Virus record (IMG/VR): IMGVR_UViG_3300042520_000860
Span: 14,299 to 78,298 of that record
Length of the DNA stretch: 64,000 nucleotides
Source: a virus
Direction: 5' to 3' (one strand)
A model generated the notes under the pieces. That model searched no databases. It saw only the letters and a program-made list of their open reading frames with translations, and had not been told where the DNA came from. The position numbers were made by a program, and so were the translations under genes. Below are positions 7,891 to 48,662 of this stretch, piece by piece (the first letter of the stretch is position 1; each line of letters begins with the position of its first letter).

Positions 7891-7909
7891 GATTTTGTAA
7901 TTCTAAAAG

Positions 7910-10327
7910 TTATGATGCTGAGTAAGGCGTAATTTTTGCGAAGCCGTAAACGTCTGCCGTAGTATCGCCTTCGATCTTCACGTTGAGGCCATTGATAGCC
8001 ACAAGCCCGCGAGGGTCAGTTTCATTGTTGCCAGTATCGAATCTCGCCAGCCTACCGCGAACGATGAAGTTCGGACTAGTAAGCACCGTGGTGGTTGTCT
8101 CGTAGCCGCCATAGAGTTTCTTTTCGACAATGAAGCTGTCTTGAAGGTTCGCGATTGTTCGGGCAATCTTGATTCCGAATGTGTGCGTACTGGCGACTTC
8201 AGTGAGAAGGAAAGAGTAATCAAGCGACGGCGCGAGGAAGGTAACGTCATCAAGGTTGCTCGGATTGCTCGGACTCTTTGTTGGAATGCCGATGTCGATG
8301 ACAATACCCCAGTGAACTGGCGTGCTGGATTTGAAGACTGCGGCAACTATTCCAAGATCCAAAATGAACTGGTTGCCAGTGCGGAGCTGACGGTCATTGA
8401 CTGGTACGCGGAATAGCTCACGGGTAAAGTCAGACGGGTAATAGACGCTCTCGCCGCTATTGACTCGCTCGACTTGGTAGAAGCCACGGCCATCCCATGC
8501 GTAGAAGGCGGGGGCTTTGACTTTCTTCAGCTTGCGCCCAAGATAACCGGGGATACTGAGTTCTTTGGAAGTGTCGGTGTATTGGTAGACCGCCGACAAT
8601 GAAGGCGCGGTCGGAAGCGTGTTTGCAACCGTGACCGCTCCTTGCAGATACTTCGCGGGTAACAAGCCACCGCCGCGAGGAAGCGAGCTTGGAATGATTG
8701 ACGCGACGCCTTGTTCTCCACCTCCGCCAGCTTCAAGCACGGGCTGAGTGCGTAGCGGGAAAATCTCGAAGAAAGAAGGAAGAGTCCACGCGGCGACGCC
8801 TTGTACCTTACTGGACGAGCTGACATTGGCGTTTGGAATGTAAGTTTCCAATGCCTCGACGCGCTCGCCCAAGTCCTCTAACAAAAAGCCCAAGCCATTG
8901 ATCTGCGCAATCGTATGGGTGTGGTTGACGAATGCCGATTTTGGCCCTGCCGTGGTAATAACCACGCGAAATTGATTGTCAGTTGCAAGGTTTGCAAACT
9001 TAACGGAAAGCACGTCGTCACTTTCATGAAAAACATCTTCAGGGTAAATGAGCTTACCTCCGTCTAACTGATCGAAGACCGACACGTGCAGGTCGGTCGT
9101 TCCAAGATTGTGTGAAACTTTGTAGCATCCTTCTTGAGCGTCGTAATCGCTTGAACTAAGCGTCAATGAGTAATGCTGTGATCCGAAAATCACTTGATCG
9201 CGGGTGAACGGAACGTAAGTCTCACCAATCGGCGGGCGAAGCCAGTCAACGTTTGAGGCAGCTTCGAGCCCCTCCCAGTTCAGTTCACGCTCGATGGTAA
9301 TCGGCATCTTGCAAAGCGACATCGTTGTGAGCGTTTCATCCGCTTCCTCAAAGGTGGCTTCGATCTCTAAAAAGGATTTTACATCAGGCGCGGAGCGAAG
9401 AGCCTCGGCAACCTCAATAGTATTAGTGTCAAGCGTCAGGGTAGGATCGCCGACGTCGTTGGAAGTCACAGTAACCTCTATCAACTCTTGCGAAACCCCT
9501 TCCATCGAGCCTTTGAATGTAATGTGGGCAAAGTTGTTTCGCGGGTTTGTCACCTCAAAGTTACCGCCTTCATCAGCAAGTTTTACGATAGCGGCTTTGA
9601 TTTCGTCTGGCCCGTCCTCGATTGAAAGCTCATCGGTTCGTTTGTAGCCACGCTTTAGCACGTAAGTGCCACGGAAGGATGGAAGAACCTTTAGGCTTTG
9701 AATTTCTGGCCACTTGGTGAATGCGTCTTCGCCACCCTCTTGAACTCGCTTCACTTCCGGCATATCTGGAAGAATCGGCACGAAATCCACCGTTGACGCC
9801 AACGGAGACTGAATGAGGCGAATGTCATAGTGGTAGGCATCGTTAAACCTCATTTCCCTTACCCGAACGAAGGATAGTGGTTTCAAAGATTCGACAAGTC
9901 CAGAGACTGAAGTTCCAGCCAATCCTGTGATTCGCTGTCCTTCATTAGAGATGATCCACGAACCATCAGTATTGACAACCGTCACGCCGCCAAGCCCGAT
10001 TTCTGCTAGTGCGCTTTGAACGGCCCGCGAAGTTGCATTGAAAGCGATTGCGGGCGTTTGATTCTCTCCTTCCACATACGGGCCGTTGCCTTTCCGTAGC
10101 ACGAAATGGCCTGATTCGGGTCTTGAATCGTATGCACCGATTGATGCCCTAATAGATACAAGGTTCTTGGTAACTTCAGATGACGATCCGTTGACAGACG
10201 AAAGAAAGCGAAGCCCGATTCTCAGCTTATCGCCTTGTGTAATAGCCGGAAAGGTAAAGCCAGAACCGCCAGACGCTGTTTCGGTAAGCGTTTTTTTGTT
10301 TAAGTCAGCGTAGAGAACCAGTTGCAT
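7910..10327 (-). CDS. tail/baseplate-associated protein
   Basis: 805 aa; HNLGT and HTHTIAQINGL fibre-type motifs; downstream of tape measure. Confidence 0.65.
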   Translation of the reverse strand: MQLVLYADLNKKTLTETASGGSGFTFPAITQGDKLRIGLRFLSSVNGSSSEVTKNLVSIRASIGAYDSRPESGHFVLRKGNGPYVEGENQTPAIAFNATSRAVQSALAEIGLGGVTVVNTDGSWIISNEGQRITGLAGTSVSGLVESLKPLSFVRVREMRFNDAYHYDIRLIQSPLASTVDFVPILPDMPEVKRVQEGGEDAFTKWPEIQSLKVLPSFRGTYVLKRGYKRTDELSIEDGPDEIKAAIVKLADEGGNFEVTNPRNNFAHITFKGSMEGVSQELIEVTVTSNDVGDPTLTLDTNTIEVAEALRSAPDVKSFLEIEATFEEADETLTTMSLCKMPITIERELNWEGLEAASNVDWLRPPIGETYVPFTRDQVIFGSQHYSLTLSSSDYDAQEGCYKVSHNLGTTDLHVSVFDQLDGGKLIYPEDVFHESDDVLSVKFANLATDNQFRVVITTAGPKSAFVNHTHTIAQINGLGFLLEDLGERVEALETYIPNANVSSSSKVQGVAAWTLPSFFEIFPLRTQPVLEAGGGGEQGVASIIPSSLPRGGGLLPAKYLQGAVTVANTLPTAPSLSAVYQYTDTSKELSIPGYLGRKLKKVKAPAFYAWDGRGFYQVERVNSGESVYYPSDFTRELFRVPVNDRQLRTGNQFILDLGIVAAVFKSSTPVHWGIVIDIGIPTKSPSNPSNLDDVTFLAPSLDYSFLLTEVASTHTFGIKIARTIANLQDSFIVEKKLYGGYETTTTVLTSPNFIVRGRLARFDTGNNETDPRGLVAINGLNVKIEGDTTADVYGFAKITPYSAS

Positions 10328-32417: not shown

Positions 32418-33737
32418 TCATAGCGACTGCGGCGACTCAGCGGTTCCATTCATGCCAGCAACCGCCAGCGGAACCAGCCCACTCTCGATAAAGAATTGAT
32501 CCAAGTAAGGGTCGTCAATCCGTTGCAATCCAGCTTTCTCACGAAGTTCGTTCGGGGTCATTGCGCCGATCTTAACCATCGGGCCGTAATCCTTGAGCGT
32601 CTGCTCAACGTCGATCAGGCCAGACATGCTGTAATCGTAGCACAGGTTTTCTCCGTAGGCTTTAGCAATTCCGCCAGCCATGTTGATGCGGCCAATCAAT
32701 AAGTCAAGCAACGGCACGCACTCGTACTTGCGGAAGTTGATGTCATCCTGCCTAGCGGTTGCGTAGTTTGCCGCGCCAGCAATACCAGCAACAGAAAGCG
32801 GAACGCCGTGGATGAGGAAGATTTGTTCAACCGTCCATTTCTCACGCTCAATCGCTTGCATCTCCTGCATCGTCAGGCCGAGCTTATGGTATGACCAGTC
32901 TCCGTTCAGGAAAGCAGTCTTACCTGCGTTGCGACGACCACCGTATTCCGAGTTGAACTTTTGTCGAAACGCTTTCCATGCGCCTTCATCTTCAACAACG
33001 TCTTTCTTAGTCAGAATACCAGACGGCATTGCGCCATTCTCAAGGAACTTTTCATCCAGAGCATTGCGGTTGATGTAGGCCGAGAGCGTGTCCTGCGATG
33101 GTTCGACGTCGCCAAGTCCCATGATGAGATTGTTAGGATGCGGGCGTCGGAACTGGAGGATTTCCTCAGGCTTTAACGCAATCGTTTGGCCGTTGATCTT
33201 GTACTTCCAACCCTTGATTTTGATCTTTGGGTCAGGGTCTGCCTCGATGTACTGAGGAAGTAAGGGGAAGATTGCTTTTGGTTGGCCAGCGCCATTAGGC
33301 TCGTCTTTCAGCCAATAGGCAGTACCCGTCAACTTCATGTGGAATGTCCACATGTAAATCAATTCTTCCCATGAGTCGAATGGGTTAGGCGTTGACAGGA
33401 ACATTGCCAACGGGTGCGTATCAGGCAGGAGCTGGTCTTCGGACTCACCCACCCCAAGTTGAATTGCTTGGACTTTTGCGGAGACGAGGACGTTGGCGAC
33501 CAAGTGACAAGCGCGGAACGAAGCCCAGACCTTTTTGCTACCGACGTCGAGGAAGGATTGGAAGTCGGCTAACTTGGAAATAGTGACGCCTACGCGTTGT
33601 TCAATGAAGTTGCGCTCCTTTACATTCGGGATGCGAGAGAGGACAGTTTTCTCGGCAACGCTGAACAACTCTTTTCGATCATTGTAGCTGAGGTCTGAGA
33701 GTTTGGCTGGCGTATTCTTAAAGATCCAGAATGGCAT
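32418..33737 (-). CDS. portal protein (HK97 family)
   Basis: PNPF, LTGTAYW, ENGAMPSG, MTPNELR motifs. Confidence 0.92.
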   Translation of the reverse strand: MPFWIFKNTPAKLSDLSYNDRKELFSVAEKTVLSRIPNVKERNFIEQRVGVTISKLADFQSFLDVGSKKVWASFRACHLVANVLVSAKVQAIQLGVGESEDQLLPDTHPLAMFLSTPNPFDSWEELIYMWTFHMKLTGTAYWLKDEPNGAGQPKAIFPLLPQYIEADPDPKIKIKGWKYKINGQTIALKPEEILQFRRPHPNNLIMGLGDVEPSQDTLSAYINRNALDEKFLENGAMPSGILTKKDVVEDEGAWKAFRQKFNSEYGGRRNAGKTAFLNGDWSYHKLGLTMQEMQAIEREKWTVEQIFLIHGVPLSVAGIAGAANYATARQDDINFRKYECVPLLDLLIGRINMAGGIAKAYGENLCYDYSMSGLIDVEQTLKDYGPMVKIGAMTPNELREKAGLQRIDDPYLDQFFIESGLVPLAVAGMNGTAESPQSL

Positions 33738-35132: not shown

Positions 35133-36620
35133 TTATGCAATTAGTAGTTTCGGAAGAGGCGTCGTCAACTCCTCATGCGCAATCGAAACGGCATCGACTT
35201 GGTCGTCATGTATCCCTTCTGGGAATTGCTCAAGCTCTTCGACGAACTCTTTTGTCCATAGGCCGCGAACGATAGTCACGCGTCCGGCCTCGATCAAATT
35301 TAACCACGGCTGCGCACGCAAGAGTTTTCCGCCTCTAGGTGGGTTGCGTTTGTGGACTGCGATGTTGCCGAGCAAGGATGCTTTGACGTCTTGGTAAATG
35401 GCATCGAAACCTCCCACGCCTTCGACCGCAATCCGCAAAACGTTCATCTTCTCACGGTCACGGAGCGCCTGTTCAATCATCTGGCCGCGAACTTTCGCCC
35501 ACGCCCACTGTCGTTTGAATATGTCCACGATGTAAAACTGGTCGCCATCCCACCCGCATAGCGCGCCAGCGGTAAAGTCTGCGGATTGCTTTTCAGTAAT
35601 GGCCAAGTCCCATCCTCGCGTCAGGGTTAAGCCATCTGGTAATTCTGATCGCTCAATGTACCGCAACTTCGATAAATCCGCCTGTCCCGATGATGCGGTT
35701 CGAGGCGTACCCTCGTACTGACTCGACCACTCATAGGCGGGCAGCGCCGCCTTCAATCCAAGCAAGAAGGACAACGGTCGCTCTTGAGGGAATAGCGGGT
35801 CTCCCTCGCCGCGCATCAATGGATCATTTGAATCTGCGATGGCTTTAAGGTTGGTCACTTCAAACGCAGACGAGCCTTGGCCCTCAGCCTTGAGTTGCGC
35901 AACGTAGTCTTCACTTGTCAAGTGACCGATTAAGTCATTTGGATGCCAGCGCGTTCCGATAATGAACACCTTAGCGTTTCGGCTAAGTCGAGTTGCGCAG
36001 TCGGCGAAGTACCATTCGATCACTCGACGACGTTGCAAAGATGACTCGGCCTCTGCACGTCCCGCGTGCGCATCGTCAATAATAAGCCAGTCAACTTTGC
36101 GTCCAGTCAACTTAGACCCAGCCGATTTTGCAATGATCGACGACCCATTAGAAAAGTAAACACTATCCGCGCGGTCGCGTCCAAACACTGGGGCAATGTT
36201 CGGAAAGATCCGCGCATAGGCCGGTAAACCCATAATGTTTTTAATCTCACGAATGAAATCAGTTAGCAGCGAATGAGAGAACCCGGTAATAGCGACGCTA
36301 ATTCCGGGCTTGCTTCCGACCAACCATGCCACGGCACGAACTGCAAGCAGGCGACTCTTACCATGCTGAGGAGGAACGCTCACTGCTTGGCGTGGTGCAC
36401 ACTGGCCTGTTATTACGCCTTGAACTTTAGTGGCAAGAAACTGGTGAAGCTCGCCGATCACATAGCTGGCTGAGTCATTCTGAGGAAACATTACGTGCAG
36501 AAACGAGAGAAAATCCTCTTGAGCAACTGCTGTCAGACGTTTGTACAAGACCAAGAACGCCGCATCATCGAGATCAGGCGCAGTCTCAGTCTCATCAAGC
36601 GATGGTTTTTTTCTTGGCAT
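35133..36620 (-). CDS. terL: terminase large subunit
   Basis: PPQHGKS Walker A, IIDD Walker B, GTRWH, WDLA, HDDQVDA. Confidence 0.95.
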   Translation of the reverse strand: MPRKKPSLDETETAPDLDDAAFLVLYKRLTAVAQEDFLSFLHVMFPQNDSASYVIGELHQFLATKVQGVITGQCAPRQAVSVPPQHGKSRLLAVRAVAWLVGSKPGISVAITGFSHSLLTDFIREIKNIMGLPAYARIFPNIAPVFGRDRADSVYFSNGSSIIAKSAGSKLTGRKVDWLIIDDAHAGRAEAESSLQRRRVIEWYFADCATRLSRNAKVFIIGTRWHPNDLIGHLTSEDYVAQLKAEGQGSSAFEVTNLKAIADSNDPLMRGEGDPLFPQERPLSFLLGLKAALPAYEWSSQYEGTPRTASSGQADLSKLRYIERSELPDGLTLTRGWDLAITEKQSADFTAGALCGWDGDQFYIVDIFKRQWAWAKVRGQMIEQALRDREKMNVLRIAVEGVGGFDAIYQDVKASLLGNIAVHKRNPPRGGKLLRAQPWLNLIEAGRVTIVRGLWTKEFVEELEQFPEGIHDDQVDAVSIAHEELTTPLPKLLIA

Positions 36621-36626
36621 TCAAGA

Positions 36627-37181
36627 TTACTTCAGATCGACGTCCTTGTTATTTGCCGCTATTCGTGAGGCGTCCGTAAAGGCCGATGGGAACGCGCGCA
36701 TGGCCGCTTGCAGGGCTTTGCCCAAGGCATTGCCACTCATCTCTTCTCTAGCGTCACCTACGATTGAGACCTCACCTTTAAGTGGCTGGTCGGCAGGGGT
36801 GGTCAATTCAACCCGCGTCGAATAACCACGACCGCGTCCTTTAGTAGATAAGTAAAAGGTAATCGCCCGCGTATCGTTGTTCTTGACGTTCTCCAGCAAC
36901 TTGCGTTCGACGAAATCAAGTTGCTTGTGGTCAATTTCTTTTACCTTGCGCTGGAAGTCTAGGTCTTGCTCCATCCATTCGTAGATAGTGCGGCGAGGAA
37001 TACCTACCTGCTGAGCAGCATAGGAAATGATTCCGAGGTGCTCATCTAGCATGACAAGGAACTTCTGCTTATCACTGGCCTTCTTTTTCTCACGCTGCTC
37101 AGCCAATGAAACTGTATTCTTTTCTTCATTGATAATTAAACGTCTGCGCCGAGGCGCTGCTTTTTGTTTCGGTTCTTTCAT
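36627..37181 (-). CDS. terS: terminase small subunit (HTH)
   Basis: AAQQVGIPRRTIYEW HTH, AITFYLSTKGRGRGY; directly upstream of terL. Confidence 0.85.
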   Translation of the reverse strand: MKEPKQKAAPRRRRLIINEEKNTVSLAEQREKKKASDKQKFLVMLDEHLGIISYAAQQVGIPRRTIYEWMEQDLDFQRKVKEIDHKQLDFVERKLLENVKNNDTRAITFYLSTKGRGRGYSTRVELTTPADQPLKGEVSIVGDAREEMSGNALGKALQAAMRAFPSAFTDASRIAANNKDVDLK

Positions 37182-37194
37182 AAGCTATTTAGAT

Positions 37195-38322
37195 TTAGTG
37201 CGACGGAATAAGGCGGCTTGCTTCAGCAAGGGCCATCCCGACAACCTGATCCATGTTGTAGTAACGATAAGTCGCAAGTCTGCCAATAAAAGAGACATTC
37301 TTTTCAGAATCGGAAAGCTCCTTGTATTTTTTGTAAATGACCGAGGACTCAACTGACGGTACGGGATAGTACGCCTCTTTTCCTAAGGAAAAATCATCGG
37401 GATATTCACGAACCACCGTCGTATTCTCACATGTTTGACCCGTTATGTGCTTTACCTCAACAGTTCTGGTAAAGGGAATTGACTCACTAGGGTAATTAAC
37501 TTGTACGGCTGGTTGATAAAAACTTCCCCCAAGCTCCTTTTCAGAAAAGGATTCATGCTCAAATCGTAACGAGCGGTAAGGCAACGCACCGAACCTATGG
37601 TCATAAAAAGAATCAATCGGGCCTGTGTACACCATGTGATTAAACGTTACGTTTTTAACGGTATCGAGATAATCCTCATTTAGGACTACGGTAAGTAGAC
37701 TACCGCATGACGAAATCATCTTTTTGAACATAGCCGTGTACCCTTCCTTCGGCATTGCTTGAAAACTCTCTTGAAGGTAGCGGTCATCGCGGTTCATCCT
37801 AATTGGGATACGCGCACAAACGCTGGCGTCGAGGTCTTTTGGATGACGCTTCCACTGTTTCATCGTGTAGCCCTTGAAGAATTTTTCATAAAGTTCCCAT
37901 CCAACCTGAGAAACCACGACCTCCTCAGAATTTGCAGGGTTTGCAATTTCAATGCGGTGTGTATCGAGCCACTCACTCATCTCCTCACTGGTCGACGGCC
38001 TTCCAATAAACTGCTCGAATGTGTTTAAGTTTATGGGAAAGTTCCAGTAGTCCTCATCTATTTTAGATAGGATTTTGTACTCAACTGGTAGCCATTCAGT
38101 AAAAAGCGAAAGGTAGTCTTTAATCCTAGCAGAGTTGGTTCTAAAGTAATGAGGGCCGTACTTGTGGATTAGCACACCTGCCCCATCGAGCATGTCATAA
38201 CAGTTCCCGCCTATGTGCTCGCGGCGGTCAACCACTAGGCACTTGCGCCCAGCGCTGCACGCCCTCTCAGCAAAGGTAAGGCCCGCGATACCCGCGCCGA
38301 CAATCAAGTAATCGTAGTGCAT
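37195..38322 (-). CDS. glf: UDP-galactopyranose mutase
   Basis: GAGIAG, HIGGNCYD, HKYGPH, LPYRSL, YYP, GRLATYRYYNMDQ. Confidence 0.95.
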   Translation of the reverse strand: MHYDYLIVGAGIAGLTFAERACSAGRKCLVVDRREHIGGNCYDMLDGAGVLIHKYGPHYFRTNSARIKDYLSLFTEWLPVEYKILSKIDEDYWNFPINLNTFEQFIGRPSTSEEMSEWLDTHRIEIANPANSEEVVVSQVGWELYEKFFKGYTMKQWKRHPKDLDASVCARIPIRMNRDDRYLQESFQAMPKEGYTAMFKKMISSCGSLLTVVLNEDYLDTVKNVTFNHMVYTGPIDSFYDHRFGALPYRSLRFEHESFSEKELGGSFYQPAVQVNYPSESIPFTRTVEVKHITGQTCENTTVVREYPDDFSLGKEAYYPVPSVESSVIYKKYKELSDSEKNVSFIGRLATYRYYNMDQVVGMALAEASRLIPSH

Positions 38323-38329
38323 GGCTTAT

Positions 38330-39250
38330 TTACGGCTTACGCCACTGTTCAGAAATAAGTCTAGGCACCGCGTTATTCCACATTGTGTTATGGTGAAAGC
38401 GGCGATTAGTTGTCCATAGCTCTGAAACGGTTGTGGATGATGGGTGCTGTATGACCGTGTAGAATGATTTTAGATACGTACCGTTATCCATGTACACCTC
38501 TGTCATGCCACCCGCCGCAGCTTGAGTCGGGACTTGTGTAAGCTGTGCTTGTGTAAGTGTAAAATAAAGATGGCCGCGTGATCCGTTAAGCACTGCCGCG
38601 CTTACATCCTCATTCATGCGACCGCAGAACGTAAAAGGTCGATCTGTCCGACATACCCACGAGTTCATTATCTTGCGAAGTAATCGCCAACCGTTCTTGA
38701 AGTAAGAGTTATCATGCCCGCCGATGTAGTCCCCGCCTTGCGCAATGGCAACGGCTGACGTGGGCGTAGCGTCCATAAATTCCACGAGCGCCGCAAATAG
38801 TCCATCTAACGAAAGTAGTTTCTTTTGCGAGATAAACTCTCCGTTAGCATTTGCACGGTAAGAGAACGTCGTGTAGTCGTCGTCTAGTTGGATAAAATGA
38901 GTAATGCCAAGCTCGGTGGCGATCTCAAAGCAAGCATTCCTAGCATAGACTACAGCCCTACGATCAGTAAAGTTGTCACAGTTAGGATAAGTCTCGGAAA
39001 TCTTTTTCTTATCAAAGATCACAACTTCATCCCCGAATTTTTCCTTGTACGCATTTCGTTTCTTGTCCTCGTTATCCACGACAAGAATAATACGCCCCTT
39101 GTACCCTGCCGTCTTTATGGCATCATACGTTCTTACATTGTCTGGTCTTCCATGCGTAAGAATAAACGCGGCAAAGGTTTCCGGCAAGGTTTGCCAGTTT
39201 GCTTTCGGCGGGCCTGCATTTTGTGTTAGCTTGCTCATCGTAATGGTCAA
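38330..39250 (-). CDS. GT-A glycosyltransferase, TAGT/GREB1-like
   Basis: ILTHGRP, YARN, LDDDY, GRMNEDV, GGM motifs. Confidence 0.85.
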   Translation of the reverse strand: MTITMSKLTQNAGPPKANWQTLPETFAAFILTHGRPDNVRTYDAIKTAGYKGRIILVVDNEDKKRNAYKEKFGDEVVIFDKKKISETYPNCDNFTDRRAVVYARNACFEIATELGITHFIQLDDDYTTFSYRANANGEFISQKKLLSLDGLFAALVEFMDATPTSAVAIAQGGDYIGGHDNSYFKNGWRLLRKIMNSWVCRTDRPFTFCGRMNEDVSAAVLNGSRGHLYFTLTQAQLTQVPTQAAAGGMTEVYMDNGTYLKSFYTVIQHPSSTTVSELWTTNRRFHHNTMWNNAVPRLISEQWRKP

Positions 39251-40188
39251 TCGTTAGTGTCCTCAGTGGAAAGCTCATCCGAATGGTCTTGGGCATACAA
39301 GGCTTTGACCCGTTCAGTCAACCTAACATAACCAAGCTCAACGGCCCTATTAAAGTCCACTAGAACCAAGGCACTGTTTTCCATTAAACGCTGAACCTCT
39401 TTCGGCGCATGCGCATAGTACTCGGCGACTTTACCATAATCGAACACGATGTGCCGACTAGCTGCGAATTTAAGAAAATCGGCAACTTCTTGATCGTCTA
39501 TTTGAGCACTTTCGATTTCCTCAATAAACTGATTGTACTTTTTAAGCCCTGCAAGCTCAGCCACTTTAGGTTTGTCACCAGTTGGAGTGTAGATAGGGAC
39601 GACAACCTTTCCAGTGTACGCTGATTCAGTATTCTCCGAGGACTCATCCGAATCCCCTTGCATACCAAGTCCATCCTCATCCCCCATAGGAGGAATAGCG
39701 CCATCAAAGCCAGTGATTTCAAGATCAAACGGAAGCTCCTCTGTTGAAAGCTCCGTAAGTATTTCATTTAAGGCAGGGAAATCCCACTCAGCGCTCCAAC
39801 GATTCGCCGCAATCATCGCCGCCTTTTCTTTTTGATCGTTCCACTTAACTTCACGATAGGCAAAGCGCGTACCCGTGCTGAGGACTACGTAACCGTAGGC
39901 AAGAGTCCCGGCCTCATCCGCACTCGGCAGTATTAACTCAACTGACTTAGTAGCCGCGCTATCTTCCTTGAACTCTGCCAACCTTTTATGACCACCGACT
40001 AAATGTCCAGAGGTCGTATTGAACACGATACCCGAAAGGTCGCCGAACTCTTTTAGCGATTTTCTGAATGCCTCTCGCTGGTCATCATCTCGCCATTCTT
40101 TACGAGGGTTTTTAGGGTTAGACGCTAGGGTATCTAAGCCTAGCGAGTCTACGGCATTTACAGCTTTTTCTTTTTTATTGTTTGTCAT
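39247..40188 (-). CDS. ParB/Srx-like N-terminal domain protein with additional C-terminal domain
   Basis: NPKNPR, SLKEFG, LVGGHKR, IAANR, WD motifs; acidic linker; YTGKVVVPIYTP...AEYYAH..SALV C-domain. Confidence 0.8.
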   Translation of the reverse strand: MTNNKKEKAVNAVDSLGLDTLASNPKNPRKEWRDDDQREAFRKSLKEFGDLSGIVFNTTSGHLVGGHKRLAEFKEDSAATKSVELILPSADEAGTLAYGYVVLSTGTRFAYREVKWNDQKEKAAMIAANRWSAEWDFPALNEILTELSTEELPFDLEITGFDGAIPPMGDEDGLGMQGDSDESSENTESAYTGKVVVPIYTPTGDKPKVAELAGLKKYNQFIEEIESAQIDDQEVADFLKFAASRHIVFDYGKVAEYYAHAPKEVQRLMENSALVLVDFNRAVELGYVRLTERVKALYAQDHSDELSTEDTND

Positions 40189-40211
40189 GTGATTAAGTAT
40201 TTTGTCGGAGG

Positions 40212-41024
40212 CTATTTTCGAGGAATTTCAATAGCCTTGCCATTATTAAGAATAGGGCGTTGCTTGAACTGAGACCAGCTAGCCCTTCCGCTGGCTTTAC
40301 CAAAGTGATTACACGCGACTAGACTTATGTCGTCTGGCCATAATTTTTTGAGATTACGTAGATGATTAAGTCTTCCAGTAGCGCCACCCCTTACATCCTG
40401 CATACCACCCGCTATGGCATCCGAACTAGCTGAATGTTGAAGATATTGAAAACAAAGTAGCGTTACCCATCCTTGTTTAAGTACTTGAAGAGAATAGTCA
40501 GTGTCTCCGGGAATAACGCGCCACCATGCGTCAACATCTGTGCGAAATAGCCCACAGGTGTAAATCAGCTGGTTCACTAGGAATGGGCGCGGCTCATTAA
40601 ACACCGCCCCTTGTGCTTTTGGACATGCCGCCGCTACGTTCTTAAACTGTGTAACAAACTCTTGAACGCCCAGTAAGGCATCGAGAGCCTCACACCGTTC
40701 GGCCTTAAATTTTCCATCAATGATTCCAACTCTTCGGCGAAATGAAATAAGATCGTCATCTATTTGCCAGTGCCACTTTGCCCCCATAGTACGGGCATGT
40801 CGCTTACAGAAATTACGAGAAAAGATAATCCCTTGATTATCCTTAGGCAATACGAGAATCCTATCTTCGCCATATTGGTTTGCGTAAGCCTCGCTTTCTT
40901 GCGGCTCCACCACTAAACGAAATGGGATATTGTTCCTCAGAAGTAGCTTGGGAGTAGTAGCGGAGTTTGCCCTTCCCTTTGAGGGCACATAGATAGGGAA
41001 TAGATTCTCTAGTTTCGCGCTCAT
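40212..41024 (-). CDS. second GT-A glycosyltransferase, TAGT/GREB1-like
   Basis: IYVPSKGRA, VEPQE, SRN, IDDD, DTDYSLQ, GGM motifs. Confidence 0.85.
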   Translation of the reverse strand: MSAKLENLFPIYVPSKGRANSATTPKLLLRNNIPFRLVVEPQESEAYANQYGEDRILVLPKDNQGIIFSRNFCKRHARTMGAKWHWQIDDDLISFRRRVGIIDGKFKAERCEALDALLGVQEFVTQFKNVAAACPKAQGAVFNEPRPFLVNQLIYTCGLFRTDVDAWWRVIPGDTDYSLQVLKQGWVTLLCFQYLQHSASSDAIAGGMQDVRGGATGRLNHLRNLKKLWPDDISLVACNHFGKASGRASWSQFKQRPILNNGKAIEIPRK

Positions 41025-41036
41025 GATTATCGGCGA

Positions 41037-41981
41037 TTAGTGACTCTCCCGCAGCGAGGGAACGCTCAGCACTGCCTCCATTGCTTGTGCCCAGCCTGTG
41101 TGTGGGCTAGTCATCCATGGCTCTCTTATTGCAAGAATGTCACGGCGTATCTGCATGGCCACACTGCTAGTGTTCACCGATCCATATGGCGAGATACGAA
41201 TCATAAACGGCTGCTCGAAACGCCTCACCAGATCGCTATGATACTCTAGCGCAGTGCTCCACTCTGCCGCGTGAGGCTTCAGACCGGCAGGAGTAGGTGC
41301 TGACCTAGATTGAATGATCTGTTTAGCCGTCAACTCTGGATCAATAAACGGCGACTGTATCTTTGTTAAGCACTCTACAAGAGCGTCTTCACTTGAAGTC
41401 ATTAGCTGGTCGAAGTCAAAGACCTCGCAGCCAATTTGAGTGAACGCCCAATCCATCCTCCACCTCATAAGCTGCCAACCCGCCACGGCCTGTCTCCGAA
41501 GGTCAGTAGCCGTTGAGCGTAGAAACTCCTTCAATTCACAATCAACCAACCCATGCGACAGGATTGAATGAAAGCAGGCCACGTACCAGCCGACTACCCT
41601 AACAGTAAGGGGCGGAAAGGTGTAGGAGATGTTTCTAGTTACGCCAAACGTGTGGAAACGTTTTGAGAATGCCTCCGCACAGAATGAGAAAAATACTTCT
41701 TTGGTAAAGTTGTAGGGCTCCTTATTCCACGACGAATCCAAGATTTTATCCACCGTGTCCGAATCAAGTTCTTTCGGGATATTACCTACGCACGGGTAAA
41801 GCTCACAACCTAAGTATGGCGAAAGCGCCTCATAGTACTTTTGATTTAGTACAGGGTTAAAGAACTCTTTAGGGTACATCGAAATGGACGGATTTGCCTT
41901 AGCGATGCAGTTTGAAAACCAAGTTGAGCCGGAGTTTGGCTGACTCACGAGCAGTAAATTACACTCAGTTTTCGTTTTCAT
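41037..41981 (-). CDS. P-loop sulfotransferase-like (or kinase-like) protein
   Basis: SQPNSGSTWF loop followed by EFFNP; start at MKTKTE. Confidence 0.6.
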   Translation of the reverse strand: MKTKTECNLLLVSQPNSGSTWFSNCIAKANPSISMYPKEFFNPVLNQKYYEALSPYLGCELYPCVGNIPKELDSDTVDKILDSSWNKEPYNFTKEVFFSFCAEAFSKRFHTFGVTRNISYTFPPLTVRVVGWYVACFHSILSHGLVDCELKEFLRSTATDLRRQAVAGWQLMRWRMDWAFTQIGCEVFDFDQLMTSSEDALVECLTKIQSPFIDPELTAKQIIQSRSAPTPAGLKPHAAEWSTALEYHSDLVRRFEQPFMIRISPYGSVNTSSVAMQIRRDILAIREPWMTSPHTGWAQAMEAVLSVPSLRESH

Positions 41982-42112
41982 GGTTTTGACTTGGTGAAGT
42001 TTTCGATCAGCGCAAACGAGCGCGTGCCACTTGGAATGTTCCAAGCGTAAGCGGACGGGTCAAACAAGTAGCGGTTGCCCTTGGTAAATGCTGGTTTGAG
42101 TTCTGGGGTCAC
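41978..42112 (-). CDS. possible 44-aa ORF (not in ORF track)
   Basis: GTG start, MTPELKPAFTKGNRYLFDP...; TGA overlaps next ATG. Confidence 0.35.
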   Translation of the reverse strand: MTPELKPAFTKGNRYLFDPSAYAWNIPSGTRSFALIENFTKSKP

Positions 42113-42329
42113 AGCGGGTGAGTCACCAGACAATCTTAATCCTCAAATGCTGTCAAGCTATTGGTGTGCAACTTGTGCGAAATAGTTTGTGACAAATCGC
42201 ACAGCTTTTCTGTCACAAAAGAAATTGCAACGTTTGCAATTTTGAAAAGTTGTTACTGGCAAGGACTCCTACGAGTAACAAACCTTTCGCCAACTCATTT
42301 GACTGGACGCGGTTATCCTATGGCTTATC

Positions 42330-42638
42330 ATGCGCCCGATGCTCAAGAGCGTTTCCATCGCTGGCCACAAGATACCGATACGCGTGAAGAATCTTGAGGA
42401 TTGCTACGGGCAGTATTCTCCCGATGCGAAGGTGATCGAACTCGACAGGAAGACGCTCAAGGATAGTAAGCTCCTTCGCGAAACTCTGCGGCATGAGATG
42501 GTCGAAGCCGCATTGTATCTCAGCGGCGTTGCCTACAGCGAAAACTACGAGCAAGAGCCAATCGTCCGTGCACTCGATGAGTTATTCTGGCCAGCTTGGG
42601 ACTCGGCCAGCAAACGGCTGGACAAGCTCACGCAATGA
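42330..42638 (+). CDS. small zincin-like (ImmA/IrrE-like) protein with degenerate HExxH
   Basis: YGQY...IEL...ETLRHEMVEA...EQE; only credible plus-strand gene. Confidence 0.65.
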   Translation: MRPMLKSVSIAGHKIPIRVKNLEDCYGQYSPDAKVIELDRKTLKDSKLLRETLRHEMVEAALYLSGVAYSENYEQEPIVRALDELFWPAWDSASKRLDKLTQ

Positions 42639-42661
42639 TTTGCAAGGTTTGCAAACTAATT

Positions 42662-46111: not shown

Positions 46112-46993
46112 TTAGAGGTCTTCTGGGTGGCGAAAGCCAAGAAACGACGGGATGCGCGGCTTGTCCTTCATACCGATTGACTGATAGCGAAACTTGACGA
46201 GCTTTCCAAGATAGTTTTTGCGGTTGTCCCATATCTCTTTCCTCAGCGCGGCATCAAAGCCAGTGCCTAGGTTGAAGTCGCCGAAGCGTTCATGGCGAAG
46301 TACTAACGCGCCAAGGGTTCCAAGCGGCGTGAGGTTTTCTTTGTGCGACGAGCGGCGCGTATGACCAAGCTCATTGGTGGTGGCCTCGTTATCATTGCGA
46401 TGCTGTTCCTCGAAGTCGATGATCTCGGCCTCGTCGTCCTCGAAAGGTTTGAGTTTAATGAGGTGGCCTTCCTTGAAGGTTGACCTACCGAACTTGTAGA
46501 CTCCTCGCGGGGCGCGGATCATTGCGCCCTCGTATCCACGCGTCAAGCATGAGTCCAGATAGTCGTCCAGCTCGATGCGGTCGCGAATGAACTTGGTTTC
46601 AACCGCCTTCAGGAACGGGTGCTTTTTTGCAAGGTTTGCAATCCTGAAAATGTACTGATTGACCCGTTGCTCATACGGTAGCGCGGGACTGGTGAAGGTA
46701 TCAAAGACATGGAAGGCGAAGTCGGGCTTGCCGCCGCGCGTCATAATCCCAGATGTGACATCTTGGAATGATGCGCCATCGCCCACCATCAACTCGCCAT
46801 CAAAGCCATCGAACTCAGGCCGTGTCAGCGTCGCGCTGATGTGGCTGTTTGGAATGGGTTTGAGCGAGCGCGTCTTTGGCATGCCGTTAATCACAAGGCA
46901 ACGGATTCCGTCCAGCTTCGGTGAGGCAATCAGCGGAAAGCGCAGCGTGTGCGCCTCAGCATCAAAGGATGCCGCGAGCATGGGCTTAATCAT
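46112..46993 (-). CDS. minimal ATP-dependent DNA ligase
   Basis: KPMLA, KLDGIR, DGEL, VFD, EGAMIR, KLK, PRIPSF motifs. Confidence 0.93.
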   Translation of the reverse strand: MIKPMLAASFDAEAHTLRFPLIASPKLDGIRCLVINGMPKTRSLKPIPNSHISATLTRPEFDGFDGELMVGDGASFQDVTSGIMTRGGKPDFAFHVFDTFTSPALPYEQRVNQYIFRIANLAKKHPFLKAVETKFIRDRIELDDYLDSCLTRGYEGAMIRAPRGVYKFGRSTFKEGHLIKLKPFEDDEAEIIDFEEQHRNDNEATTNELGHTRRSSHKENLTPLGTLGALVLRHERFGDFNLGTGFDAALRKEIWDNRKNYLGKLVKFRYQSIGMKDKPRIPSFLGFRHPEDL

Positions 46994-47556
46994 TGCGCAC
47001 CTCCTTTCTGCTTGAGCGACAAGCGACCAAGCCCAGCGGTGAACCATTTAGGCGGGGAGCAAAACTTCCACTTAGCGAAACTACTTTTATCGTAGATGTA
47101 GTACAGGCGATACTTTTCAACTGCCGTAAGGCCATCAAACCCTTGATGCTTGCGGCATTGCTGCTGGTCTGAGATGGCGATAGCAAAGTCGGTCAGCCCA
47201 CCAAGAGGAACGAGCGAGTCATTGTAGCGCAAGTCGCACCATCGAATAAATTTCTCAGAAAAGTGAGACCCGCCATAGCGGCGCTTTTTTTCATGGCACA
47301 TAGACAGCGCGTGAAGGATCAGCCAATCCATGTTTTCAGAAGAGGCCATAACCCACCGCGTGCAAGGGTGGTTTGAGTACCCATGCGAGCGTGGGTTGCC
47401 GTTACTATTGCGGGGACAATCATTCGCGGCAAGGCGTTCCAAGGTAAAGCAGTTAGCCAGCATTTGAGCAGACTCAACAATCATCTTGATGACATGGGCA
47501 TCACATAAGTCCCTCGCCGCTTTTTCTGGATCTTGATCTAAGCAGAATATGTTCAT
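46990..47556 (-). CDS. pyrimidine-dimer DNA glycosylase/endonuclease V-like protein
   Basis: MNIFCLD, HVIKMIVESAQML, HPCTRW, YRLYY motifs. Confidence 0.8.
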   Translation of the reverse strand: MNIFCLDQDPEKAARDLCDAHVIKMIVESAQMLANCFTLERLAANDCPRNSNGNPRSHGYSNHPCTRWVMASSENMDWLILHALSMCHEKKRRYGGSHFSEKFIRWCDLRYNDSLVPLGGLTDFAIAISDQQQCRKHQGFDGLTAVEKYRLYYIYDKSSFAKWKFCSPPKWFTAGLGRLSLKQKGGAQ

Positions 47557-47559
47557 GGG

Positions 47560-47724
47560 TTAATCTCCTAGTGCGGTTCTATCAACATAGTCCTCGAAGC
47601 AAAGCTCACAAAGGATGCCGATCTTGCTACGGTGCATTCGAATCTCATCGGACTTCATTTGCGCTGGACTGACGACTTGCCCACAATCAGCGCAAGTCAA
47701 AGGTTGGTCATGTATTACAGACAT
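47560..47724 (-). CDS. 54-aa CxxC..CxxC zinc-finger protein (not in ORF track)
   Basis: Manual translation MSVIHDQPLTCADCGQ...LCELCFEDYVDRTALGD; paralog at 51312-51479. Confidence 0.75.
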   Translation of the reverse strand: MSVIHDQPLTCADCGQVVSPAQMKSDEIRMHRSKIGILCELCFEDYVDRTALGD

Positions 47725-47792
47725 AGCGTTAATTTATTTGGTTGGCGAGTTGGTAGTTTAAGAGGCGCGGGGATTGAACCCACGCCGGAAGT

Positions 47793-48662
47793 TTAGGCAT
47801 CAGCGGATTCGTTATTGAACTGCACGCCCATTATGAAGTCAGCGGCGCGTTGTGCTTGCGCGGCGGCTTGCACCACCAGCTTAGAATCATCCTTGAGCGC
47901 TTTGAGCCATGAGGCAATGTACGAGGCACTTGTTTTCAAAGTGTTTTCAATGCCCGCTGAGGCGCTCAAGAAGGCCGCGCCCATCTCGGCGACTAACTCT
48001 TCCTTGGCGTAGCACTCATCACCGAAGGCCGCCAGCTCCGTAACGCCAGCGCGGTTTAAGCGCGACTCATGACCCGTGGCGTGGGTTAGCTCATGGAAAA
48101 GGACTGAGTAGTAATTGCCCTCGGCATCGAATGACTCACGCGGCGGCATCGTCACGCTATCCTCGCAGGGGCGATAAAAAGCACGCCCACCTCCATGATT
48201 GATGCGGGGGGCCTTTGGCATCTCGGCCACGATCTTTTCCGCCGCCTCAATCGGGTTGAACTCTGGCAGGTTGGCGGGTGCTTCATCGACCGCAAGACCG
48301 TCGCATTGCTCGACATTGAAGACGGTGAAGTATCTCAGGAAAGGAACTTTCTTCGGCGTGCCATCGGCTTTCTTTTCGGTCTTGGAGTCAACCCAGTTCC
48401 AGAAGACAATCGGCGTTCCCTTTTCGCCCTTGCGCACTGAGCCGCCAAGGGAAGTAGCTTGCTTGAAGGTCAGCCAGTAGGGCGAGGCATACGGGGCGAA
48501 TCCAAGGAGGAACCAGTTGACGCCGCGATAAGGCTTGCGGCTGATAAAGTTAGCAGGGTTTCCGCCGTTCTCGGCTTTCCACGGCTTGCGCCATGGCACT
48601 GTTCCAGCTTCGAGTTGCGAAATGATTTGCTCGGTGACGATTTCGTAGATGTCTTTTTTCAT
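47793..48662 (-). CDS. ardC: ArdC-like antirestriction/ssDNA-binding protein with zincin domain
   Basis: PWRKPW, YRGVN, WLTFKQ, VRKGEKG, VFNVEQ, HELTHATGH, EELVAE, YIASW. Confidence 0.92.
   Translation of the reverse strand: MKKDIYEIVTEQIISQLEAGTVPWRKPWKAENGGNPANFISRKPYRGVNWFLLGFAPYASPYWLTFKQATSLGGSVRKGEKGTPIVFWNWVDSKTEKKADGTPKKVPFLRYFTVFNVEQCDGLAVDEAPANLPEFNPIEAAEKIVAEMPKAPRINHGGGRAFYRPCEDSVTMPPRESFDAEGNYYSVLFHELTHATGHESRLNRAGVTELAAFGDECYAKEELVAEMGAAFLSASAGIENTLKTSASYIASWLKALKDDSKLVVQAAAQAQRAADFIMGVQFNNESADA

Follow-up and report, generated by a model that had tools for sequence, protein, structure and literature searches.

A terminase-linked phage gene cluster predicted to encode a ParB-tethered glycosylation system with its own galactofuranose supply

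Gene cluster and packaging linkage

Directly upstream of its terminase genes, a freshwater phage carries a five-gene cluster that we read as encoding a ParB-tethered system that puts a galactofuranose (Galf)-bearing, probably sulfated glycan on phage DNA, a reading to which we give roughly even odds (about 0.5). The phage is represented by a linear contig of 78,298 bp (~89% complete, ~9 kb unseen), and coordinates are those of the window, the 64,000-nucleotide stretch of this contig that was analyzed. Between 37195 and 41981 on the minus strand, ORF1, TAGT_A, a ParB-like gene, TAGT_B, and Glf follow one another with intergenic gaps of -4 to 23 nt and are succeeded by terS, terL, and portal. 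An earlier note had described five packed genes running into terS/terL, which the gene coordinates confirm, and had proposed a link to packaging, which is borne out by terS, terL, and portal lying directly after Glf on the same strand. Its five gene assignments, including a "sulfotransferase-like" call made by eye, also held, through matches to PF20691, PF03275/TIGR00031, and phrog_620 and through a structure model of ORF1. The features are as follows.

42045..42661, no strand: noncoding region of 617 bp upstream of the cluster, its coding strand without an ORF
41037..41981, minus strand: ORF1, sulfotransferase-fold protein (ATG start, 314 aa; an alternative TTG start at 42044 adds 21 aa)
40212..41024, minus strand: TAGT_A, GT-A glycosyltransferase (PF20691, 3.5e-31; QIDDDL [DxD] motif)
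39247..40188, minus strand: ParB-like adaptor (phrog_620, 3.9e-31)
38330..39250, minus strand: TAGT_B, GT-A glycosyltransferase (PF20691, 1.5e-35; phrog_842, 1.2e-64; QLDDDY motif)
37195..38322, minus strand: Glf, UDP-galactopyranose mutase, an FAD enzyme (PF03275, 5.4e-70)
36627..37181, minus strand: terS, small terminase subunit, directly downstream of the cluster (phrog_4044, phrog_309; HTH matches)
35133..36620, minus strand: terL, large terminase subunit (Terminase_6N and 6C; phrog_38, 1e-77)
32418-33737, minus strand: portal, downstream of terL

The noncoding region is the probable control region of the cluster operon. It holds two copies, at 42225 and 42640, of the palindrome TTGCAA-N3-TTGCAA, which occurs 15 times genome-wide against 0.01 expected. 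Within the cluster, matches to consensus promoters and terminators were no more frequent than in shuffled sequence. terS belongs to the same transcription unit as the five genes, and together with terL they would form one late operon encoding the glycosylation system.

Glycosyltransferases and galactofuranose supply

Both glycosyltransferases match PF20691 well above the Pfam cut-off and keep the DxD motif, with D124 and D125 of TAGT_B invariant. The TAGT_A family occurs in at least 129 viral loci; all 46 homologues carry PF20691, one of them fused to ParB_N, and 34 of 80 fetched loci also contain a ParB-like gene, mostly directly upstream. In one such relative, L249, a TAGT_A-type glycosyltransferase and a ParB-like protein sit just before terL inside a classical thymidine hypermodification cluster that also holds Tet_JBP, a P-loop kinase, and an amino acid:DNA transferase. 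Members of the T6 type put a second sugar onto the first (PMC13390438), and by analogy such an addition would fit a two-glycosyltransferase pathway here.

Glf scores 337.8 bits against TIGR00031, whose equivalog cut-off is 303.75, and matches the solved UDP-galactopyranose mutase 3hdq over its full length (E value of 2.7e-117), so that by homology it is the predicted supplier of UDP-galactofuranose. The earlier proposals that Glf feeds UDP-Galf to the glycosyltransferases, and that the product may be a two-sugar, sulfated adduct, gain support. In Rhizobium phage RL38J1, a phage-encoded Glf has been connected with a DNA modification that bears galactose (PMC13326640). Among 80 viral loci of the closest Glf relatives, none had a TAGT, ParB, or sulfotransferase-fold neighbor, which counts against the favored reading.

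ParB-like adaptor and its coupling to TAGT_B

The ParB-like protein consists of a ParB/Srx-type N-terminal nucleotide-binding domain (~7-163), an acidic linker, and a conserved C-terminal domain (~190-300), and it has no HTH domain. Its family, found in at least 557 viral loci, matches the ParB/Spo0J/Noc N-domain at profile level (E values of 1e-4 to 0.02); in sequence, it showed no resemblance to the TET-linked ParB of phage Cooper. Coupling to TAGT_B is close: the start of TAGT_B overlaps the ParB-like stop by 4 nt, in 79 of 80 related viral loci, the gene right after ParB encodes a TAGT_B homologue, and of 81 matches, 75 are overlapping or abutting pairs, often with terS or terL next. Viruses with widely differing hosts, an archaeal virus among them, share this module.

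Structure prediction supports binding of TAGT_B by the C-terminal domain of the ParB-like protein. The modeled complex scored 0.83, a value attained by 58 of 80 solved complexes and by 2 of 110 mismatched pairs, while the best of three controls scored 0.00. Contact agreement between runs was at least 53%, partner pLDDT was at least 71, and the predicted interface comprises ParB residues 193-202 and 248-306. Since no sequence relatives of TAGT_B were found in the PDB, the score is unlikely to reflect structures seen in training. Relatives carry fusions of the ParB N-domain to DNA methylases and, in P0278, L187, L205, and L243, to TAGT_A-type glycosyltransferases.

A sulfotransferase-fold family linked to furanose mutases

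ORF1 returned no matches in Pfam, including its sulfotransferase models, PHROG, or NCBIfam. Its AF2 model (pLDDT of 88.8) folds like a sulfotransferase: in VIA-align, each of the 18 best PDB matches is a sulfotransferase, the first being TPST1 (5wri_A; Z of 12.3, rmsd of 3.7 over 202 residues), and Foldseek agrees, with a tyrosylprotein sulfotransferase match at 7e-5. An ORF1 profile searched against PDB sequences retrieved SULT2A1 and relatives (E value of 0.02) through the 5'-phosphosulfate-binding (PSB) loop, whose counterpart in ORF1 is the N-terminal loop LLLVSQPNSGSTWF. The conserved Lys94, Arg116/126, Ser139, and Arg226 of the family could bind phosphates. The catalytic Lys/Arg position of the PSB loop is mostly Asn or Ser in this family (N in 52, S in 23, R in 8, and K in 2 of 87 sequences), which counts against a sulfotransferase reading. 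The phosphorylation that the earlier note had offered as an alternative to sulfation is not favored, as the fold is that of a sulfotransferase and not a kinase. A role for ORF1 as an acceptor-making enzyme was considered and rejected, because its fold is not a double-stranded beta-helix.

The ORF1 family, unannotated and comprising at least 234 representative clusters, is recurrently linked to TAGT-like glycosyltransferases, ParB-like genes, and furanose mutases. A TAGT-like glycosyltransferase (GT_C type) adjoins the ORF1-family gene in 9 of 10 viral loci. The gene directly follows Glf in L004, L006, L176, L177, L179, and L182 and adjoins a divergently oriented Glf in L008. In L181, Glf is replaced by an RGP-family protein (PF03214, 4.6e-38), which we take to be a member of the plant UDP-arabinopyranose mutase family. 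The Glf genes that adjoin the ORF1 family fall in at least four separate places on the Glf tree. In L006, an APS-kinase-like gene comes next (all of its 21 highest-ranking PDB matches are APS kinase domains, best E value of 3e-9), yet such a neighbor occurs in only 1 of ~20 ORF1-family loci, which counts against sulfation. The link between a sulfotransferase-fold family and furanose supply is the novel part of the locus.

Missing acceptor-making enzymes

TET/JBP, a ThyA homologue, DNA methylase, hydroxymethylase, radical SAM, and generic 2OG oxygenase were all undetected in the whole contig, in a search that found the divergent Mycobacterium phage Cooper gp2, our positive control for TET/JBP, at an E value of 4e-8. 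The absence of TET/JBP, methylase, and hydroxymethylase noted earlier for the window thus extends to the remaining contig, where the suggested check for TET/JBP, MTase, and ThyA-like genes found none. For the ParB-TAGT_B pair, TET/JBP occurred in 0 of 50 related records and ThyA in 1 of 50; in a second set of related records, TET/JBP occurred in 1 of 50. At 90% completeness or above, Tet_JBP was found in 0 of 13 and 0 of 6 records and ThyA in 0 of 13, and neither gene is present in G002 (100% complete) or G056 (terminal repeats). The premise that TAGT-like enzymes usually come with TET/JBP and a methylase fails for the TAGT_A and TAGT_B subfamilies. The earlier note had left two options for the acceptor; since TET/JBP is missing as a rule from related ParB-TAGT modules, a different chemical group is the likelier, and an acceptor made elsewhere in the genome the less likely.

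Favored mechanism and its alternatives

In the mechanism that we favor, the ParB-like protein would dock TAGT_B by its C-terminal domain, and its N-domain would recruit that enzyme to the target, most probably phage DNA that has been replicated and awaits packaging. Glf would convert host UDP-galactopyranose to UDP-galactofuranose, and TAGT_A and TAGT_B would attach a pair of sugars that includes at least one Galf. The proximal sugar is probably attached by TAGT_B, since the ParB-TAGT_B pair works in hundreds of phages without Glf, and TAGT_A probably attaches Galf. ORF1 would then sulfate the furanose with host PAPS. The acceptor would be something other than a TET- or ThyA-made hydroxymethyl or hydroxy pyrimidine, and the purpose is presumably protection from host nucleases. 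DNA as the target is supported by the fusions of the ParB N-domain to DNA methylases and TAGT_A-type glycosyltransferases, by the Tet_JBP cluster of L249, and by precedent: in ParB-dependent phage thymine dioxygenases, ParB activates a DNA-modifying enzyme (PMC13229309). Against it counts that no enzyme making an acceptor hydroxyl was detected, together with the fact that, to our knowledge, no GT-A enzyme glycosylates unmodified DNA bases.

A second reading, less likely but a serious rival, is that the cluster acts on protein instead. Its five enzymes would add sugar and sulfate to a virion or packaging protein such as capsid, portal, or terminase, or to the acidic linker, rich in Ser/Thr, of the ParB-like protein, so that the particle would contain or display a glycoprotein bearing Galf and sulfate. 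Mycobacteriophages are known to glycosylate their virions with glycosyltransferases of their own, which speaks for this reading, as do the position of the cluster against structural and packaging genes and the lack of a detected acceptor-base-making enzyme in the contig. So do the TAGT family member GREB1, which O-GlcNAcylates protein (PMC7968844), and the ~65% of phage glycosyltransferase contigs that have no DNA-modifying neighbor (bioRxiv 10.1101/2023.12.21.572611). Structurally, ORF1 matches tyrosylprotein sulfotransferases best, but this does not fix the substrate, as the sugar- or lipid-directed Stf0, STF1, and heparan sulfate enzymes score nearly equally, and the tight furanose-mutase link suggests sugar rather than tyrosine. 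Against a protein target also stands the ParB/Srx fold of the obligatory partner, a domain that elsewhere occurs in fusion with DNA methylases and alongside DNA dioxygenases (PMC13229309), and the same glycosyltransferase subfamily lies within the genuine DNA hypermodification cluster of L249.

It is unlikely that the phage uses a conventional hydroxymethyl or hydroxy pyrimidine pathway whose 5mYOX, ThyA homologue, or new hydroxylase lies in the missing 11% or has diverged among unannotated proteins. The contig is linear and incomplete, several of its proteins (180-480 aa) have no family, Pfam misses thousands of 5mYOX-like sequences (O'Toole et al., PMC13229309), and L249 pairs the same glycosyltransferase and ParB families with Tet_JBP. 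However, acceptor enzymes are normally inside the cluster, which here is contiguous from promoter region to terS; they are also absent from relatives whose records are complete or almost so; the search does recover a divergent phage TET/JBP; and the candidate ORF1 has the wrong fold. Least probable of all is modification of a host molecule (surface glycan, lipid-linked intermediate, or small metabolite) for superinfection exclusion or host takeover, with the ParB-like protein a mere scaffold: cell-surface glycans are the normal role of Glf, the 80 closest viral Glf genes sit in non-ParB contexts, and glycolipid precursors are substrates of bacterial sulfotransferases such as Stf0, but the five proteins look soluble, with no membrane-associated or lipid-carrier enzyme noticed in an unsystematic look, the cluster appears to be expressed with late packaging genes, and a substrate carried by the virus accounts better than a host-specific glycan for the presence of the module in viruses of such different hosts.

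Comparison with known systems

The ORF1 fold is shared with PAPS-dependent sulfotransferases (TPST1/2, Stf0, STF1/STF9, CurM/OLS domains, and cytosolic SULTs; Z of 8-12 over ~200 residues), as is a PSB-type loop, P-x-S-G-S/T-x-W, after the first strand. Unlike these enzymes, ORF1 lacks sequence-level family membership, its relatives mostly replace the PSB-loop Lys/Arg, and its family context is viral, adjoining ParB, GT-A, and furanose mutase genes. The kinetoplastid base-J glucosyltransferase belongs with the TAGT family. PF20691 also includes the T2/T6 beta-glucosyl-HMC alpha-glucosyltransferase and TET-associated GT-A enzymes (Burke et al. 2021; Pyle et al. 2023), whereas the TAGT_A and TAGT_B subfamilies are almost never TET- or ThyA-linked and the donor for one of them is probably UDP-Galf.

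The glycosylated 5-hydroxycytosine pathway of RL38J1 and Pootjesviridae likewise includes a phage UDP-galactopyranose mutase among its DNA glycosylation genes (Lee et al., NAR 2026, PMC13326640), with galactose as the base-proximal sugar and several glycosyltransferases. There, the acceptor 5hoC is made by a ThyA homologue, which the present phage lacks, and the enzymes are GT-B-like (PMC13326640); the ParB, TAGT pair, sulfotransferase, and terminase linkage of our cluster are all missing from RL38J1. Closest in layout are the 5mYOX176/ParB176 clusters (O'Toole et al., PNAS 2026, PMC13229309), in which a ParB homologue with an N-terminal nucleotide-binding domain, unstructured linker, and C-terminal domain, and likewise no HTH, lies beside a DNA-modifying enzyme, glycosyltransferases, and terminase, with cognate ParB-enzyme pairing (PMC13229309). 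Exactly this type of cluster is present, with a TAGT_A-type glycosyltransferase, in the relative L249. The phage described here differs in having no 5mYOX, and the predicted partner of its ParB-like protein is the glycosyltransferase itself.

Organization of the cluster and its source contig

The linear, 78,298-bp source contig from IMG/VR, of which the window covers bases 14299-78298, is 89% complete according to CheckV, and its minus strand holds nearly all genes. The earlier note had described a packed five-gene cluster leading into the packaging genes, and this is borne out by gene calls, Pfam and PHROG matches, and a spacing between the five genes of -4 to 23 nt, with terS, terL and the portal gene continuing the same run. 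The genes, in window positions, are as follows.

41037-41981, minus strand: ORF1, predicted sulfotransferase-fold protein, ATG at 41981, 314 aa
Within 37195-41981, minus strand: TAGT_A, GT-A glycosyltransferase (PF20691, 3.5e-31)
Within 37195-41981, minus strand: ParB-like protein (phrog_620, 3.9e-31)
Within 37195-41981, minus strand: TAGT_B, second GT-A glycosyltransferase (PF20691, 1.5e-35; phrog_842, 1.2e-64)
Within 37195-41981, minus strand: Glf, assigned as UDP-galactopyranose mutase (PF03275, 5.4e-70)

A 617-bp noncoding stretch lies upstream of ORF1. Since matches to promoter and terminator consensus sequences within the cluster showed no excess over shuffled sequence, the five genes are probably carried on one transcript with the packaging genes. 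Several studies have yielded lake and freshwater metagenomes in which the phage is present, and megablast returned no match to the cluster region among isolated phages. The palindrome TTGCAA-N3-TTGCAA occurs at 15 sites (window positions 2921 to 62353) against 0.01 expected, both within genes and at control regions; two sites (42225 and 42640) fall in the noncoding region upstream of the cluster and none inside it. It could be a site for a regulator, for the ParB-like protein, or for the modification itself. Separately, the early region (window positions 46990-48662) encodes a pyrimidine-dimer glycosylase of the DenV-like type (PF03013) together with an antirestriction protein that resembles ArdC and has a zincin peptidase domain (PF08401 and PF18818).

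ORF1 is predicted to adopt a sulfotransferase fold

ORF1 had no match in Pfam (E up to 10), PHROG, or NCBIfam, and only six close homologues were found, while an exhaustive profile search gathered a family of 234 representative clusters, mostly of 220 to 260 aa. An AF2 model built from an 87-sequence alignment reached a pLDDT of 88.8; one built from a 6-sequence alignment (pLDDT 57.7) was set aside. A Foldseek search with the former model returned sulfotransferases nearly throughout the top list (best hit, TPST at 7e-5). The top 18 hits of an independent all-against-all structural search of 48,161 chains were likewise all sulfotransferases (Z 12.3 to 8.1), the closest being TPST1 (5wri_A; Z 12.3, rmsd 3.7, 202 residues), with P-loop kinases at Z below 8. 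Judged from this model, ORF1 is a sulfotransferase-fold protein, the fold being one with a P-loop-like core and a PAPS cleft. The family profile aligned the N-terminal loop PNSGSTW to the 5'-phosphosulfate-binding (PSB) loop PKSGTNW of SULT2A1, at an E value of 0.02 and over 25 residues only. Language-model features, which we treat only as a lead, matched sulfotransferase clusters in 25 of 30 named cases, including Sulfotransfer_1 and _3. Public gene calls for ORF1 begin at Met35 (280 aa); such a start would drop the first strand along with the PSB-type loop, a loop kept in full-length relatives. At the loop's position for a catalytic Lys or Arg (PKxGTTW type), the 87 family members carry N (52), S (23), R (8), or K (2). 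Because this position is Asn or Ser in most members, sulfate transfer by the ORF1 family is likely but not certain. The candidate identity of ORF1 as a diverged TET/JBP dioxygenase was rejected, given its sulfotransferase fold, its lack of similarity to gp2 of Mycobacterium phage Cooper, and the lack of a PF12851 signal.

Glf and the link to furanose sugars

Glf scored 337.8 bits against TIGR00031 (equivalog cutoff, 303.75), with residues 3-372 covering profile positions 2-377 of 378. It carries an N-terminal FAD-binding Rossmann motif (NAD_binding_8, 5.6e-17, residues 7-71) and its residues 3-371 match the solved Deinococcus enzyme 3hdq from end to end (E 2.7e-117), with the RxNRDxRY and RYYNMDQ blocks inside the alignment. 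By these sequence matches, Glf is a UDP-galactopyranose mutase.

We compared the neighborhoods of ORF1 relatives across related viral and metagenomic loci (L numbers). TAGT_A adjoins ORF1 just as GT_C, a third TAGT-like subtype, adjoins ORF1 relatives in 9 of 10 viral loci; in at least five loci with ORF1 relatives, GT_C has a weak ParB-like gene on its upstream side. A glf gene directly precedes the ORF1 relative in L004, L006, L176, L177, L179, and L182 and adjoins it on the opposite strand in L008. In a quick tree (plain FastTree, no support values), the Glf sequences of these loci and of the window fall in at least four separate places, which suggests that Glf was recruited repeatedly. In a soil or bog metagenome contig (L181:1067-2029), the slot held elsewhere by Glf, between a TAGT-like transferase and the ORF1 relative, is occupied by an RGP-family protein (PF03214, 4.6e-38), a family that we take to be the plant UDP-arabinopyranose mutases. 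That one slot can be taken by either of two unrelated mutases, both converting pyranose to furanose, argues that the ORF1-family module handles a furanose sugar. Furthermore, the gene directly after the ORF1 relative in L006 (10672-11493) encodes a 273-aa protein whose N-terminal half is APS-kinase-like (top 21 PDB matches all APS kinase domains, best E 3e-9) and whose tail is nucleotidyltransferase-like, with a HIGH motif. This protein may be a miniature PAPS-synthesis enzyme, and its position fits PAPS use by the ORF1 family; no APS kinase was found in the source contig. Conversely, the 80 viral loci holding the closest relatives of the window Glf had no TAGT, ParB, or sulfotransferase-fold neighbors, so viral Glf does not generally keep such company, and its combination with GT, ParB, and ORF1-family genes is specific.

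In other phages, ParB/GT/sulfotransferase-fold modules repeatedly have small MgsA_C (RarA-tail)-like proteins nearby (L008:5030-5674, L009:8632-9246, and L182:6285-6845), and none was found in the source contig. A scan of genome contigs with alignment A1 returned no relative; the pattern was narrow and the result is no evidence of absence from cellular genomes.

The ParB-like protein and its glycosyltransferases

The ParB-like protein combines an N-domain of the ParB/Srx type with a C-terminal domain that is strongly conserved, the two being joined by an acidic linker. Its family profile matched ParB/Spo0J/Noc N-domains at E values of 1e-4 to 0.02, and the Pfam ParB_N score of 14.6 bits is below the cutoff of 26.3. 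Of the features of a chromosome or plasmid partition system, a parS-binding HTH domain and a ParA partner, neither was seen: HTH_ParB gave no match to the protein, and no parA was noted among the annotated contig genes. IMG/VR holds at least 557 loci with this ParB-like family. In 79 of the 80 that were fetched, the next gene downstream is a TAGT_B homologue (E down to 1e-97), with the two genes overlapping or abutting in 75 of 81 matches and terS or terL often next. Isolates with the same two genes include the Lactobacillus phages c5, phiLdb, LL-Ku, and phi jlb1, siphophages of Escherichia coli and Salmonella, Nocardia phage NTR1, Vibrio phages of 190 kb, and, among archaeal viruses, HHTV-2. 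ParB and TAGT_B are a pair. TAGT_B itself scored 123.5 bits against PF20691 (cutoff, 27.5; profile positions 3-204 of 205), and it keeps the GT-A DxD motif for metal and nucleotide-sugar binding as QLDDDY; D124 and D125 are invariant in 25 relatives.

A predicted ParB-TAGT_B complex scored 0.83, while the best of three controls scored 0.00; of the solved complexes, 58 of 80 reached this mark, as did 2 of 110 mismatched pairs. Contacts agreed to at least 53%, the partner pLDDT was 71 or higher, and the predicted interface joins residues 193-202 and 248-306 of the ParB C-terminal domain to residues 131-164, 183-192, 223-235, and 292-306 of TAGT_B. Since TAGT_B has no sequence relative among solved structures, the prediction is unlikely to reproduce a known complex, and it supports binding of TAGT_B by the ParB-like protein.

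TAGT_A (PF20691, 109.2 bits against a cutoff of 27.5, profile positions 1-197 of 205; DxD motif, QIDDDL) is a different TAGT subfamily from TAGT_B with the same habits. Its relatives were gathered by an alignment search (A7), a single-protein scan having returned none. PF20691 was detected in 46 of 46 homologues, one of which (P0278) is fused to ParB_N. A ParB-like gene of the window's family accompanies 34 of 80 TAGT_A-type viral loci, mostly directly upstream, and the ParB N-domain is fused to a TAGT_A-type transferase in three loci (L187:406-1785, L205:2675-4099, and L243:89-1573); some of the transferases are themselves tandem fusions. Glf lies near TAGT_A-type transferases in L221/L222 and L236, and in L221 it stands beside a 595-aa protein with two tandem TAGT domains (7005-8792).

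Proposed pathway and its target

We propose that the ParB-like protein would dock TAGT_B and carry it to replicated phage DNA near packaging, that Glf would supply UDP-Galf, that the two GT-A enzymes would transfer a pair of sugars that includes at least one Galf, and that the sulfotransferase-fold enzyme would sulfate the furanoside using host PAPS. We give this reading as a whole a probability of about 0.5. The donor of TAGT_B is probably a common host nucleotide sugar, since TAGT_B functions in hundreds of phages that lack Glf; the division of roles between TAGT_A and TAGT_B is our inference.

The strongest indication in this analysis that DNA can be a substrate for these GT and ParB families comes from a related locus, L249 (7342-15002), where genes for ParB_N, TAGT, P-loop nucleotide kinase3, a ParB-like protein, Tet_JBP, and an amino acid:DNA transferase precede terL. 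This is a complete classical thymidine hypermodification cluster with GT and ParB families as in the window. Fusions of the ParB N-domain to DNA methylases among relatives likewise point to DNA, as do the ParB-dependent phage thymine dioxygenases already described (PMC13229309). The main rival explanation, that the target is a virion or packaging protein, draws on the resemblance of the ORF1 fold to tyrosylprotein sulfotransferases and on GREB1 being a TAGT-family member; we consider it rather unlikely.

Absence of conventional acceptor-making enzymes

The earlier note had recognized no TET/JBP or methylase in the window and called for a check of the rest of the genome for these and for thymidylate-synthase-like genes. 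Six-frame searches of the 78,298-bp contig (89% complete; E up to 1) extended the observation, finding no Tet_JBP (PF12851), thymidylate-synthase homologue (PF00303), C5 methylase, N6/N4 methylase, radical SAM enzyme, or 2OG-FeII_Oxy_3. The Tet_JBP search did find the diverged gp2 of Cooper (E 4e-8), a phage with the gene order ParB, TET/JBP, terS, terL. The annotated replication module comprises PolA, DnaB, primase, a RecA-like protein, helicase, ligase, RuvC, and exonuclease, with no nucleotide-modifying enzyme by annotation, several contig proteins carrying no annotation. The family A DNA polymerase (L001:2755-5493, on the contig before the window) carries at its N terminus a UDG-superfamily domain (PF03167, 6e-06), followed by the exonuclease and polymerase domains.

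The same pattern holds in related viruses. Tet_JBP was found in 0 of 50 ParB/TAGT_B records and a ThyA homologue in 1 of 50, and none of the 13 records at least 90% complete had either, so the absence of TET is the rule for the ParB-TAGT_B module. Among TAGT_A-type records, Tet_JBP was found in 1 of 50 (L249). The premise that such transferases usually come with TET/JBP therefore does not hold for these subfamilies. The TAGT name derives from a genomic association with TET/JBP, which does not define the fold. Given that complete relatives also lack one, we regard a conventional acceptor pathway hidden from detection as quite improbable. We regard a host-directed function as very improbable. 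Returning to DNA as the target, a more specific version is that phage DNA bears a sulfated galactofuranosyl (or Galf-containing disaccharide) adduct, added after replication by a ParB-tethered GT-A enzyme to an acceptor other than a hydroxymethyl or hydroxy pyrimidine (an exocyclic amine, say, or a group in the backbone or at a terminus), with a core common to hundreds of bacterial and archaeal viruses. Such an adduct would be the first sulfated DNA modification and would be made by a new route of DNA glycosylation; we think this unlikely as a whole.

Implications and comparison with known systems

How a phage withstands restriction, CRISPR, and type IV systems is decided by its DNA hypermodifications, which are also a source of useful enzymes. 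To our knowledge, the characterized phage DNA glycosylations all start from a hydroxymethyl or hydroxy pyrimidine. Here, a very common ParB-GT pair without any starting step of that kind is extended by a sugar mutase, a second transferase, and a member of an unannotated sulfotransferase-fold family, and the recurrent furanose-mutase link together with one APS-kinase-like gene yields a testable chemical prediction, a furanoside sulfate. If the target is DNA, sulfate would join natural DNA chemistry, and the acceptor would lie outside those known so far. If it is protein, the cluster would represent a virion glycosylation system that is widespread and uses a ParB-like adaptor. In both cases, several hundred viral gene clusters would gain functions.

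ParB-GT-terminase neighborhoods have been described, and about 65% of phage GT contigs lack a nearby 5mYOX (TET/JBP-type) or ThyA gene (bioRxiv 10.1101/2023.12.21.572611; PMC13229309). What is new is the sulfotransferase-fold family, its recurrent coupling to the ParB/GT-A/furanose-mutase set, and the predicted sulfated furanoside; our literature search returned no paper linking a sulfotransferase to phage DNA hypermodification. In RL38J1-type 5hoC glycosylation, Glf is tied to a galactose-bearing DNA modification alongside a ThyA-homologue 5hodCMP synthase (PMC13326640), whereas the contig has no PF00303 match. The ParB of TET-bearing Cooper has no sequence similarity to the window's ParB-like family, and therefore membership in the 5mYOX-associated ParB group is not demonstrable by sequence. 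The window protein nonetheless matches the ParB of the ParB-dependent 5mYOX system in layout, with an NBD, a linker, and a CTD and without a DNA-binding domain (PMC13229309). In that system the cognate TET/JBP-type dioxygenase lies beside ParB, while here the ParB-like gene is flanked instead by two TAGTs.
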